From contig DXJF01000079.1 in assembly GCA_019057375.1 (NCBI GenBank), positions 1 to 19,265 on the forward strand: a stretch of DNA of 19,265 nucleotides, read 5' to 3'. This document shows positions 14,854 through 19,265 of this stretch, in pieces. Source of the DNA: Candidatus Heimdallarchaeota archaeon (GTDB lineage Archaea > Asgardarchaeota > Heimdallarchaeia > Heimdallarchaeales > Heimdallarchaeaceae). Under the pieces are notes generated by a model. It was not told the origin of the DNA. It ran no database searches and saw only the letters and a program-made list of their open reading frames with translations. The stretch's first letter is position 1. Each line of letters begins with the position of its first letter. A program made the translations under genes and the position numbers.

Positions 14854-17121
14854 ATGATGTTATTTTCTAAAGAGATCGTCGAGTTACTAAGTGATTCACC
14901 ATTCAAACAATTTGTACTAATGGAATTAGAACGTGAAAGAATTTACCAATCTTTTGTGCAAATAGATGATTTGGATGAAATAAGTCAAGTTTGGCTAGAT
15001 TTTTCTCAATTCTGTGCAGACACTCTTTCGAATGTTTCATCGCTATCTCACCTACTTTATAGTCGTTATCTGGATGAATGGACAAGAGATCAAGCTCAAA
15101 TTAAAGCAGATAAAGAAAGAAAGAAAATTATCACTCAAAAATTAGAAGATTTGCAAGAATTTCAGATGGAATTAGCAATTTTAATGATAGTATATGCGGA
15201 TATTGTTAATACAGGTATATTTAGTTCTCAACCATCTCCTGATTATTGTACATCTTTTATTGAGGGTTATAGAATACTAAACACAATTTCTCAAACATAT
15301 TTTGATTCATCCCACCCAAGAGCTTCAAATATAGAAGAAGTAATGTTGACCTTTCTATTACTTAATCAAAAAAAACAAATCATACAACTTTTAGAAGAAT
15401 CACCCAATGGATATAGCAAGGAAAGATTAATCGAGGAAAAGGGCGCTTATGAACTAATAATGGCAGAATTTGATGTCTCTTTCACTGCACAATTTCTAAA
15501 AAGACTGGGAGAAGATTGGTGGTGGAAAGATTCAATAGCTACTCATTTTGCTTTTGAAAGAAGTTTAAGCCATCTTGAGTTAGCACTAGATTATTATAAC
15601 CAAATACCTGAAGATCCAGAATTAAAAGGAAATCAAATTGAAACAAGTCATATCTCTTTAAATCAAGCTCAAAGAAATAAAGAGCTTATTGATCATTATC
15701 TCAGATTGAGTTTCGAAGCAGCTAAAAGTGATAGTTTCATTGCAAGTGTTGAATATCTGAATCTTGTTCTAGGACTAGAGGAAGAGGCTTTGAAAATTTT
15801 AGACTCCGACGTGGAAATGAACGAAAGAACTTTGAAATTAAAAGAAACTATCACAAAAGAAAAAACCATACATAATTTCTTTCATGGAATTGCAGAACTT
15901 GCAGCTAAAACTTCAATGTTGTACACTATAATTGCAGATGAGAAGAAAAAAGAAATTCAGAGCATCTTAGAACAAATAGAAGAAATAGTAAATAAACCAG
16001 GTTTAAAGGTAAATATCAATTATGTAAGTAGTCTCCCATTTGTTTATCTAAACTTTGTTCAAGAGTTAAAAATAGCTTTACTTGAAAATTTACACCTTAA
16101 AGATGCAATGGAAAGAGCAGAACAAAATCTAGTTCGTTTTATTGAGAGATTAGAATATGCAATCACTGATATCTCTTCACAAATGATAGAAATAGAAAAA
16201 GCAGATACAAAAATAAAATCTGAAGATATACAACCTTTACTAGAAAATATAGAAACAATAAAGATCTCAGCTTATTTCCTTCCTAAAACAGAAAAGAAAG
16301 TTTACATCGTGAAAGACATAGAATGTCTTGAGTATATGGCTAACTCTGTGTATTTAGAACAAAATCTCGTTGAAAAAGAATCAAATGAAGTTTTGGATAT
16401 CATATATCATGCTAAAGCTCATTATTATTCAACAAAAGCACTAGAAATATCTCAATTGAGCAGTGAATCAAATATAGATAAGGAATGGGTAGAACACAGA
16501 TATAGTCAAACATTCATTCAAGGACAGGACGTAGAATTACGTTTATTTGAACTATCCAGACAGTATCTGTTTTTAAATACTGTAATAGATAAAATTGCTA
16601 AAGGATATAGATTCTCACTCTCTTCAGAAGATTCCATTAAGGAAAATTACTTTACAATTATAAATCACAACTTCAATCATTTTGCTCTATTTGACATAAT
16701 TAACAAACGAATTGCTGAAAACTGCTTAGAACTATTAAATCATAAAGAGATGTTTGATTTAAAGGACTCAAATATCAACTGGAATGCAATCGAAATTAAG
16801 AAAATATTATCTCTTGCCTTGACTGATTTTTTAGAAGCAACAAAGAAAGCAATCTTTGGAATTGGTGCAGATACTAATAAGGAAAATTACAAAGCTGCCT
16901 CTCACTTTAACGATGGAGCAAAGGCAGCAAAGGATGCAAGTGATCATTTACAATCTGTTGCACAATTCGATTCAACCTTTGCACAACTAGCTAAATCAGC
17001 TTATGAATACAGCATTTTACTAAAAGAGTTAGAACGAAAAACAAGAGAAAATGAGAAATTACAAAAACTTCCTATTGATGAGTTATTCAATGTTCTCAAA
17101 CAACTTACTTTTCTTTCCTAA
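14854..17121 (+). CDS. Large (755 aa) acidic all-alpha hypothetical protein, possible alpha-solenoid
   Basis: Long uninterrupted ORF, Glu/Leu/Ile/Lys-rich amphipathic helices, no signal peptide, TM segment or catalytic motif recognised. Confidence 0.8.
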   Translation: MMLFSKEIVELLSDSPFKQFVLMELERERIYQSFVQIDDLDEISQVWLDFSQFCADTLSNVSSLSHLLYSRYLDEWTRDQAQIKADKERKKIITQKLEDLQEFQMELAILMIVYADIVNTGIFSSQPSPDYCTSFIEGYRILNTISQTYFDSSHPRASNIEEVMLTFLLLNQKKQIIQLLEESPNGYSKERLIEEKGAYELIMAEFDVSFTAQFLKRLGEDWWWKDSIATHFAFERSLSHLELALDYYNQIPEDPELKGNQIETSHISLNQAQRNKELIDHYLRLSFEAAKSDSFIASVEYLNLVLGLEEEALKILDSDVEMNERTLKLKETITKEKTIHNFFHGIAELAAKTSMLYTIIADEKKKEIQSILEQIEEIVNKPGLKVNINYVSSLPFVYLNFVQELKIALLENLHLKDAMERAEQNLVRFIERLEYAITDISSQMIEIEKADTKIKSEDIQPLLENIETIKISAYFLPKTEKKVYIVKDIECLEYMANSVYLEQNLVEKESNEVLDIIYHAKAHYYSTKALEISQLSSESNIDKEWVEHRYSQTFIQGQDVELRLFELSRQYLFLNTVIDKIAKGYRFSLSSEDSIKENYFTIINHNFNHFALFDIINKRIAENCLELLNHKEMFDLKDSNINWNAIEIKKILSLALTDFLEATKKAIFGIGADTNKENYKAASHFNDGAKAAKDASDHLQSVAQFDSTFAQLAKSAYEYSILLKELERKTRENEKLQKLPIDELFNVLKQLTFLS

Positions 17122-17166
17122 GATGGCAGCGAATCTTTTTTAAGTTAGTATAATTAGCCATTCTTG

Positions 17167-18021
17167 ATGAATACAATTCCTAATGAGGAAGAACTTTTTG
17201 GAAGAATCGACAAAGCTTATCTTGAACTACAAGAGCTACGTGGAATTCCAAATAGTGATTATGATCAATATTATGTTTCGAAGACATCTAGTATTGAAAG
17301 AGTCCTCTTAGAACATCCTGACGATTATAATGGGAAGAGAATTATTTTTCTAGGGGATATGGACCTTTCTTCTTTACCATTAGGAATTCTTTCAAAACCA
17401 AAGGATTTAGCGGTTCTAGATATAGACAAACGAATTCCTGAAATTGTTTTTAACTTGAAAGTTAAACAAAAGATTAGAAACATACGATATGTAAATCATG
17501 ATATCCGCGTTCGAATGATAATTATTCTAAAAAATCAATTTGACTATATTTTTGTTGAACCTCCTATGACAGAGGAAGGGTTAGAGGTTGGTTTAACAAG
17601 AGCTGTACAATGTGCCAACAAGGAATCAACATCAAGAATCTTTCTATCTTTTGATATTGAAAGTGAAAAAGAAGATATTCTGGAAGAACTAGTTAATAAA
17701 ATGAATTTGGAGATAGAAGAGAAGAAGACGGATTTCAACAGCTATGAATACAAAACTCCTCTGAATAAAACAGTCTCGGACTTATACATAATTAAAGTAA
17801 AACCAAATTCTAAAGAAACCATAGCAAATCATTATTTTGGCCCTATGTATTATAGAGAGAGCAACAATCGCTTGCAACAGTATAGATGTAAATGTGATGA
17901 AATCTTCAATGTAGGATCTGCTGGTGAGATTAATTCAATTGATGAACTAGAAAATAAAGGATGTCCAAAATGTAATTATAAAGGTCCTTTCTTATATAAC
18001 TCAAGTATAGAGATTGAATAA
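17167..18021 (+). CDS. BpsA-like (branched-chain polyamine synthase/DUF43) SAM-fold aminopropyltransferase with C-terminal zinc ribbon
   Basis: DYDQYYV, GKRIIFLGDMDLSS (cf. GDDDLTS), VLDIDKRI, HDIR, FDYIFVEPP.T.EGL; C-terminal CKC...CPKC. ATG 17167 (TTG 17164). Confidence 0.78.
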   Translation: MNTIPNEEELFGRIDKAYLELQELRGIPNSDYDQYYVSKTSSIERVLLEHPDDYNGKRIIFLGDMDLSSLPLGILSKPKDLAVLDIDKRIPEIVFNLKVKQKIRNIRYVNHDIRVRMIIILKNQFDYIFVEPPMTEEGLEVGLTRAVQCANKESTSRIFLSFDIESEKEDILEELVNKMNLEIEEKKTDFNSYEYKTPLNKTVSDLYIIKVKPNSKETIANHYFGPMYYRESNNRLQQYRCKCDEIFNVGSAGEINSIDELENKGCPKCNYKGPFLYNSSIEIE

Positions 18022-18051
18022 AAAAAGTCATATCAAAAATCACGTGATTGC

Positions 18052-18408
18052 ATGTCAAATCCATCTAATAAAATAACAAAGTGTGCTCTGTGTAATGAGA
18101 AACTTGAATTGAATAGTCAAATCCTACTTAATGGATGCCCTTTTTGTGGATCCTTCAAATTCAAAACTTACAGAGAGAAGTCTTCAGATCAGAAGAAAGA
18201 AGAAGAACTTGAACTTATTGTAGAAAAAGAGATTCACCAAACAGATATAAAAGAGGGGGTTGAAGAAATCAGACTTACAAGTGATGGAGTTTTTGAAGTA
18301 GATATTGAAAAATTACTTTTAGAAAGTGATGATAATAAACCAATAGTAAGTAGAAATAAAGATGGTTCTTATTATATTAAATTTCAAACAGAAGAGGAAG
18401 AAAAGTAG
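18052..18408 (+). CDS. OapC/DUF2072 (COG3364)-like zinc-ribbon protein
   Basis: CALC...ILLNGCPFCGSFKF, then GVEEIRL...GVFEVDIEKL...DGSYYI. Confidence 0.8.
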   Translation: MSNPSNKITKCALCNEKLELNSQILLNGCPFCGSFKFKTYREKSSDQKKEEELELIVEKEIHQTDIKEGVEEIRLTSDGVFEVDIEKLLLESDDNKPIVSRNKDGSYYIKFQTEEEEK

Positions 18409-18478: not shown

Positions 18479-19265
18479 TTGTCTTCTAAAGAACAAAAGG
18501 CTAAGGAAAAGAGGATATTGGATGGTGTTAAAGAAATTCTTGAATTTAGAGGATTTCAAATTAAAAAAACCAAAGAAGATGATGATTTCCTAGATATTTA
18601 TGCTGATAAAATTTCTGAAGAAAAAGAAAAGATAACAGCAATTGCAAGATTTCCAAAAAATCCTCAAATTGGAGTAAAACTAATTAGAATTTTAGGAAAA
18701 CTTCAAGAGGAAGAAGAGCTTGGTGAAGCCCTCCTTATTGCAGAATCACCTTTAACTCATTATGCAAAGAAAGAGTCAATTAAACTAGGTATTGAAATTA
18801 TAAGTAGCAATAATCCACTGTTTAACATCTTTGATCATTCAATAGTTCGTCAACATGTTAAGCTTAAATCACCAGATATAAAGCGCTTCTTAGAGAGATA
18901 CCAAATTGAAAAACATCAAATACCAAAAATCCTAGAAAATGATGCAGCTGTGAAAGCTATTCAAGCAAAACCTGGTGACATTATCAAAATCGTTCGAAAT
19001 CCAGATATGGGAGAAAATGGATCTTATTATAGGGTCGTTATAAAGTCAACATCTCGACTTCGTTTAATAGAAACAGGAACTATTAAAAAGAAAACAACAA
19101 GGAAGACTACTCCAAAAAAGCCTAAAGAAGCACCTGAAAAACCAGTTGAAGATAAACCTAAAACAACAACAAGTAAAACAGTTACAAAGCCAAAGAAAAC
19201 AACAAGTAAAACAGTTACAAAGCCAAAGAAAACAACAAGTAAAACAGTTACAAAGCCAAAGAAAA
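18479..19265 (+). CDS. rpo5: RNA polymerase subunit Rpo5/RpoH, Rpb5-like (jaw + assembly domain) with Lys/Thr/Pro-rich C-terminal tail; 3'-truncated
   Basis: Manually translated: ...RILDGVKEILEFRGF...IGVKLIR...PLTHYAKK...FNIFDHSIVRQH...FLERYQI...QIPKILEND.AVKAIQAKPGDIIKIVR...SYYRVV, then TIKKKTTRKTTPKKPK...(TTSKTVTKPKK)x3. No stop in window. Confidence 0.88.
   Translation, partial: MSSKEQKAKEKRILDGVKEILEFRGFQIKKTKEDDDFLDIYADKISEEKEKITAIARFPKNPQIGVKLIRILGKLQEEEELGEALLIAESPLTHYAKKESIKLGIEIISSNNPLFNIFDHSIVRQHVKLKSPDIKRFLERYQIEKHQIPKILENDAAVKAIQAKPGDIIKIVRNPDMGENGSYYRVVIKSTSRLRLIETGTIKKKTTRKTTPKKPKEAPEKPVEDKPKTTTSKTVTKPKKTTSKTVTKPKKTTSKTVTKPKK
19166..19265 (+). repeat. Perfect 33-bp coding tandem repeat (ACAACAAGTAAAACAGTTACAAAGCCAAAGAAA), 3 copies running to the window end
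   Basis: Copies at 19166-19198, 19199-19231 and 19232-19264, identical, in frame, encoding TTSKTVTKPKK. Confidence 0.97.

Follow-up and report, generated by a model that had tools for sequence, protein, structure and literature searches.

A lysine-rich, tandemly repeated C-terminal tail on RNA polymerase subunit Rpo5 in a lineage of Heimdallarchaeia: a candidate polycationic DNA tether

The rpoH locus and the continuation of its reading frame

The window analysed here, a stretch of 19,265 nucleotides, is the entire contig C26 of the Candidatus Heimdallarchaeota assembly G000 (3.47 Mb in 159 contigs, 33% G+C, 89% complete), and its last gene encodes RNA polymerase subunit Rpo5 (rpoH), with a 3' end that is open because the window is the whole contig (Table 1). 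A BpsA_C-like gene (branched-chain polyamine synthase C-terminal domain) and a gene for an OapC-like zinc-ribbon protein lie directly upstream (17164-18408), and a 755-aa ORF for which Pfam gives nothing at E up to 0.01 occupies 14854-17121. We find one Rpb5_C match above the cut-off in the whole genome, that at 18821-19039 (76.4 bits), and since this is the sole Rpo5 gene of the genome, its product is presumably the subunit incorporated into the polymerase. The gene is unlinked to rpoB, which is found on contig C39, where Rpb5_C has no match.

Table 1. Coordinates of the rpoH gene, its domains and tail, the continuation of the array on a second contig, and a second gene with a long lysine repeat
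Feature	Position	Strand	Basis or remark
Rpo5/RpoH gene	18479..19264	+	ORF list; 3' end open at contig end; 262 codons in window
N-terminal restriction-endonuclease-like domain	18524..18805	+	Pfam Mrr_cat, aa 16-109, E 3.5e-4
RNA_pol_Rpb5_C (assembly) domain, ending ...YYRVV	18821..19039	+	PF01191, aa 115-187
Post-domain motif IKSTSRLRL	19040..19066	+	Family consensus I-[KR]-S-x-S-R-L-[RS]-L
Basic proximal tail, non-repetitive (IETGTIKKKTTRKTTPKKPKEAPEKPVEDKPKT)	19067..19165	+	Near-identical in closest relatives
Three identical 33-nt units, TTSKTVTKPKK each	19166..19264	+	Tandem Repeats Finder and unit-by-unit register
Array remainder	G000:C128:2-235 (L003)		6-7 further units, degenerating towards the stop; C128 reading, unit register
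Helix-hairpin-helix gene	G000:C152:9851-10153 + G000:C108:3-647 (L040, L041)		60-nt contig overlap inside repeat

A sequence-only reading of the window had described a frame that runs past the YYRVV end of the Rpb5 fold into three identical repeats, and the letters re-read exactly so: after the final V codon of YYRVV, which extends up to 19039, the frame continues as I-KSTSRLRLIETGT...KPKT and then as three TTSKTVTKPKK units, giving 74-75 codons (74 residues counted from 19043) with no stop before the contig end. Tandem Repeats Finder recovers the array at 19165-19265 with period 33, 3.1 copies, 100% matches and a score of 202. An open frame within such an array is weak evidence of coding, because a repeat rich in A and poor in T leaves several frames open on both strands; the proper evidence is the conservation of this same frame across species, as read from their sequences. 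Minus-strand ORFs at 19027-19264, rich in Phe, Val and Leu, were considered as genes and rejected, being the complements of Lys codons.

A DNA search of the same assembly with the repeat gives a match at the very start of contig C128, and we find there the missing 3' end of rpoH, which adds 77 further residues in the matching frame before a stop at base 235. The units on C128 read, in order, two copies of TPSKTVTKPKK followed by TTSKTVTKPKT, TPRKTVAKPKK, TTSKTAAKPKK, TKSKTATKSKA and a terminal TTSKKSAK, and a CofD-like gene begins 33 nt past the stop. C128 is taken as the true continuation because the order oapC-rpoH-cofD is conserved in those genus relatives whose contigs are long enough, and because P0001, a database protein of 292 aa that is 98% identical, carries the same C-terminal sequence as that on C128. 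The minimal join of C26 and C128 encodes a protein of at least 336 aa, with a tail of at least 149 aa that is 33% Lys, 28% Thr and 11% Pro, has a net charge of +48 and a pI of 11.3.

The number of units in the array is not fixed, because C26 and C128 overlap by 11 nt only and the P0001 array has four units fewer than the join. Central units of the G000 array are nucleotide-identical and distal units have diverged, which is the pattern of recent slippage. Assemblies also break at the rpoH array in four genus relatives and in both genomes of the sister genus g10, with Ns in a fifth relative, and low-complexity repeats appear to have fragmented the G000 assembly repeatedly. The warning attached to the sequence-only reading, that identical copies at a sequence end may be slippage or an artefact, holds for copy number, as identical repeats do break assembly, and falls away for the existence of the tail: the stop that it had left to be found lies 77 residues beyond the end of C26, neither a stop nor a misjoin appears soon after YYRVV, and relatives carry basic tails. 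The rpoH locus repeatedly breaks short-read assemblies, with the consequence that automated annotations truncate the protein. One database cluster of five member sequences, P0006 (295 aa), has its tail in a shifted frame (QNQKQHQVRQ...) that continues through the intergenic spacer; the cause is probably an indel error within the repeat or else a genuine frameshift allele.

Ordered domains and the conserved segment ahead of the tail

The match to PF01191 covers the full profile (1-73) at E 8.8e-21 and 73.9 bits against a cut-off of 23.5, the Mrr_cat match of the N-terminal domain reaches 21.1 bits against a cut-off of 21, and RNA_pol_Rpb5_N is found below the cut-off at the sequence level, in orthologs only (E 0.013-0.032). 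An AlphaFold2 model of the ortholog P0001, obtained with a 34-sequence alignment as input, has pLDDT values of 70-93 in two domains (77-93 within the N-terminal domain) and of 43-51, without secondary structure, from around residue 193 to the end, consistent with the disorder that had been proposed for the tail. Foldseek against the PDB ranks full-length eukaryotic Rpb5 chains first (8uhd_E, 5xog_E and 1dzf; E ~1e-12 over ~210 columns), and aligns archaeal RpoH chains to the C-domain only, over 66-76 columns. Judged from this model, the product of 18479-18820 together with the C-domain is a eukaryote-type two-domain Rpb5, its N-terminal domain being the predicted equivalent of the jaw domain. 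A 2012 structural paper stated that the N-terminal (jaw) domain of Rpb5 is absent from all archaea.

Between the C-domain and the basic tail lies a nine-residue motif, IKSxSRLRL. An alignment of 34 homologs shows no variation at I188, S190 and R193, and conservation of at least 90% at K189, S192, L194 and L196. The motif is present too in genera of the family that are without the Lys-repeat tail, and was not found in other families of the order. AlphaFold2 leaves it unordered in the isolated subunit; we think that it probably docks on the surface of a neighbouring polymerase subunit.

Conservation, turnover and phylogenetic limits of the tail

An Rpo5 ortholog turns up in every family genome that was searched. 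We find a Lys-rich tail in the same frame in 22 of 22 genus orthologs examined, ending just before cofD or at a contig end, where the count leaves aside G015 (a C-domain fragment only, 35% identical) and G021 (a 357-aa frame), and in about 40 database homologs. In 37 of the latter the tails span 56-169 aa, with 29-40% Lys, pI 10.3-11.3 and a net charge of +17 to +56, so that the presence of basic tails in orthologs, the variable length and the strongly basic character that the sequence-only reading had raised all extend beyond this one genome. Relatives use at least eight unrelated repeat families, with periods of 6, 7, 8, 10, 11, 12, 17, 22 and 23 aa (for example AKKTTT, TTKAKPK, ATPDKKAK, TTPAKK, AAKPKEATKKP and a 23-mer), and across the 37 orthologous tails Thr ranges over 5-32%, Ala over 5-25% and Pro over 3-19%, with Ser down to 2-3% in some. 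The sequence of the tail thus turns over while its charge stays, and conservation covers lysine, net positive charge, a low number of acidic residues and a Lys-rich end rather than any sequence. In the proximal tail, comparison of the 30 codons past YYRVV with four close relatives gives dN/dS values of 0.11-0.31, which points to purifying selection, though from only 6-8 differences; the repeats are not alignable between species. The 41 non-repetitive residues of the tail sit well inside C26.

A search of 1.84 billion representative proteins with the tail-less core returns 987 homologs at E up to 0.001. Nearly all of the best 150 of these stop a few residues past the last strand, which agrees with the earlier statement that Rpo5/Rpb5 normally ends right after YRxV; about eight run on for 25 residues or more, and the long Lys tail is found, among the same 150, in this lineage's cluster only. 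Within the family, sister genus g10 also starts a Lys repeat, of TATKAKPKT units, before its contigs end; in genus g11 a short basic stretch gives way to ~45 acidic residues, and genera g12 and g13, two single-contig genomes among them, have bipolar or acidic tails of 25-34 residues. The bipolar, basic-then-Glu/Asp layout of related genera (L062-L065; P0041-P0046, P0056) recalls Rpo13. Rpo5 of one sister family stops at YRLVVP, and two other families have short tails, extra copies of the N-terminal endonuclease-like domain and ORFs of 440-490 aa (L028, L029, L032, L036, L037; P0062, P0070), in which short Lys-rich linkers join the domain copies; the tail-less core matched P0062 in three separate stretches. 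Distant forms of Rpo5, e.g., P0062 and P0083, have short basic C-ends. The distribution of these sequences indicates that the long polycationic tail is derived, in one or two genera, on an older, family-wide charged C-terminal extension.

We also scanned all open frames of the genome for comparable Lys-rich segments, ribosomal proteins set aside, and find about six proteins with such segments in roughly 3.5 Mb, with Rpo5 holding one of the two largest. The second large Lys repeat belongs to a helix-hairpin-helix protein (HHH_5, E 1.8e-16), whose gene is split between contigs C152 and C108; its HHH domain is followed by more than 100 residues of Lys repeat, made up of PTAKKPTAKKPATKV units, and by a C-terminal part that is weakly L35Ae-like. 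The others are a 42-residue domain linker on C3, a segment in a 4226-aa protein on C146 and two or three shorter cases, and composition alone is no proof of DNA binding, because neither the C3 linker nor the C146 protein has an obvious link to DNA. The ends of contigs C1 (ASKKI units), C47 and C102 also lie in short coding-like repeats.

A proposed DNA tether, its alternatives and known systems

That the tail is real and encoded is, on the comparative sequence evidence, close to certain; its translation in vivo, its binding to DNA and any effect on transcription are what we infer. With slightly better than even confidence, and by analogy with tails on other proteins, we propose that it is a selected polycationic appendage of Rpo5 that tethers the enzyme to double-stranded DNA by non-specific electrostatic contacts near the downstream DNA channel. 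The appendage would have two parts, the nine-residue IKSxSRLRL segment packing on a polymerase neighbour and, beyond it, a disordered polycation of at least 140 residues. Its in-frame tandem repeats would expand, contract and be replaced fast through slippage, while selection would maintain the share of lysine and a positive net charge (+17 to +56) and leave the sequence free. The tether reading follows from position and reach, because Rpo5 is expected on the side of the cleft that faces downstream DNA, and so long a chain could reach anywhere around the enzyme. Such a tether could retain the polymerase at the nucleoid, make downstream DNA more stable or aid the enzyme in competition with histones, and the role proposed is that of the lysine-rich C-tail of Rpo13, which is bound beside Rpo5 in Sulfolobus. 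The finding that the two largest Lys repeats of the genome belong to a subunit of the polymerase and to a protein with a DNA-binding fold speaks for the tether. Other findings speak against it: other genera of the family have, in this place, short tails that are bipolar or acidic, so that a polycation is not needed for Rpo5 function in the family; Lys/Pro/Thr-rich repeats also occur in the C3 linker and the C146 protein; and a genome of 33% G+C favours AAA/AAG-rich products of slippage.

The last of these points leads to a neutral origin, in which A-rich codon slippage is tolerated at a permissive, solvent-exposed C-terminus and the low-complexity expansion has mostly no specific role. We consider this unlikely. 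Units and copy numbers do turn over fast, the central units are nucleotide-identical, Lys-rich repeats of a similar kind are found elsewhere in the genome, both in unrelated proteins and where a number of contigs end, and related genera manage without a long basic tail; yet the tail is lost in no genus ortholog examined, even where identity of the core is down to ~65-75%, and the frame, the high Lys, the low acidic content and the Lys-rich terminus persist while the repeats change. Slippage tolerated at random is also at odds with the rarity of such segments and with the place of Rpo5 among the two largest, and the sole out-of-frame case, P0006, is one cluster among ~45 homologs and possibly an assembly or sequencing error. 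An outright artefact, with the tail or its repeats derived from a misjoin or a chimeric contig end, is next to negligible: the array does lie at a contig end with a minimal overlap, P0001, which may come from another assembly of the same organism, is four units shorter, and the relatives named above break at the same place, but independent assemblies of more than 40 relatives hold complete tails with stops, synteny is conserved on both sides and the non-repetitive residues lie away from the break, so that an artefact could touch copy number only.

If instead the tail is functional and its target is not DNA, the polycation might act on nascent RNA, acidic partners or histone chromatin, or associate with itself to form polymerase condensates, perhaps tuned by acetylation or methylation of lysine, which we regard as unlikely. 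Composition cannot separate DNA from RNA or from acidic proteins, and the bipolar tails of relatives, basic and then acidic, suggest an interplay of charges, Rpo13 being likewise bipolar. The histones of Asgard archaea bear lysine-rich tails, and an Asgard acetyltransferase has broad activity on disordered tails rich in lysine (bioRxiv 10.64898/2026.07.02.735847). Against this, nothing specific points to such targets, and the only experimental precedent beside Rpo5, that of Rpo13, is binding of dsDNA. The sequence-only reading had offered a phospho-regulated repeat like the Pol II CTD. In such a platform, or in one like an H1 CTD phosphorylated by CDK, phosphorylated Thr/Ser-Pro repeats would recruit factors or release DNA, and this we find very doubtful. 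Units here contain TPSK and TKPKK, and S/T-P-x-K is enriched by repeat amplification in some lineages (P0008, P0023, P0025, P0028), but S/T-P-x-K/R is missing in 19 of 37 orthologous tails, Thr and Ser fall to 5-6% and 2-3% in some, there is neither a heptad nor Tyr, and the tail is on Rpb5 and not Rpb1. As a candidate conserved feature S/T-P-x-K/R was rejected, its excess over shuffles being significant only where a motif-bearing unit has been amplified.

A bolder form of the tether proposal, which we hold to be quite improbable, is that the polymerase carries its own linker-histone-like polycation, whose charge would depend on the number of repeats, and perhaps on lysines being acetylated or methylated by the Asgard enzymes that modify histone tails, and would tune engagement with histone-packaged DNA; if true, this would be an archaeal case of transcription regulated via a modifiable disordered tail on the polymerase itself. 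If the tail of Rpo5 binds DNA at all, the species of this lineage offer a natural series, in repeat number and charge and with acidic sister genera, for the effects of an electrostatic tether on retention, processivity and passage through chromatin. Of the archaeal groups, Heimdallarchaeia, in which the tail is found, are placed nearest to eukaryotes, and the tail sits on a predicted eukaryote-type two-domain Rpb5. A literature search returned no description of an Asgard Rpo5 tail, nor of a tail of 100-170 residues and +30 to +56 on a core RNAP subunit, and a 2026 review of small archaeal RNAP subunits covers extensions of Rpo6 and Rpo8 and not of Rpo5.

Chromatin proteins, and a few enzymes, are well known to carry disordered lysine-rich tails that bind DNA. 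Those of the H1 CTD, Hc2 and HU (Hlp/HupS) are rich in Lys, Ala, Pro and Thr, disordered and repetitive, evolve by composition and act as DNA-neutralising polycations. The likeness to H1 and Hc2 that the sequence-only reading had drawn stands for composition, since a Lys-rich (29-40%), disordered and repetitive make-up is shared with the H1 CTD, chlamydial Hc2 and the mycobacterial and streptomycete HU proteins Hlp and HupS, and it stops there: the Rpo5 tail has no linker-histone or HU fold, does not conserve S/T-P-x-K, and is carried by an enzyme subunit and not by a chromatin protein. Pfam finds no Linker_histone match in the protein or its orthologs at E up to 1 and no HC2 (PF07382) match for the window tail, the 31.9 bits of P0035 against a cut-off of 40 being compositional; the tail alone has no match to any family in its window part, and in its C128 part a sub-threshold, compositional 'Mucin-like' match. 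Each testable defining feature failed, and the tail is outside the H1, Hc2, Rpo13 and Pol II CTD families; its likeness to the first three, which would be one of function, goes no further than a disordered polycation rich in lysine.

Eukaryotic Rpb5 (RPABC1) and archaeal Rpo5/RpoH share the C-domain PF01191 with the present protein, both domains of which superpose on eukaryotic Rpb5 chains, and differ in stopping a few residues past the last strand, where the long Lys tail begins here. The Pol II Rpb1 CTD, too, is a repetitive, disordered and length-variable tail on a polymerase subunit, but it belongs to another subunit, repeats the heptad YSPTSPS without net positive charge and functions via phosphorylation of Ser, Thr and Tyr, whereas the present repeats have a period of 11 aa (6-23 aa in relatives), are Lys-rich, lack Tyr and sit on Rpo5.

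Closer in kind is actinobacterial topoisomerase I, a DNA-tracking enzyme with C-terminal lysine repeats whose length varies by lineage, and which stabilise the enzyme-DNA complex and raise processivity (PMC5714199); the enzyme and the domain of life are different, and there is no homology. In RNAP-DNA structures of Sulfolobus, Rpo5 borders the downstream end of the cleft and Rpo13 occupies a crevice between Rpo5 and the clamp head; 11 of the last 22 residues of Rpo13 are lysines, and this C-tail shows no order in any of the structures, while its deletion abolishes non-specific binding of dsDNA (PMC3479171). Rpo13 is an unrelated subunit of its own, built round a helical core and with a non-repetitive tail of ~20 residues, whereas the tail described here is fused to Rpo5, is 5-8 times longer, consists of tandem repeats, is modelled without helix and has no homology to it. 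Rpo13 is bipolar, with an acidic N-end and a basic C-end, as are the tails of some relatives of the present Rpo5, and a disordered lysine-rich tail in the Rpo5/clamp-head region of the polymerase, beside downstream DNA, would be common to both.
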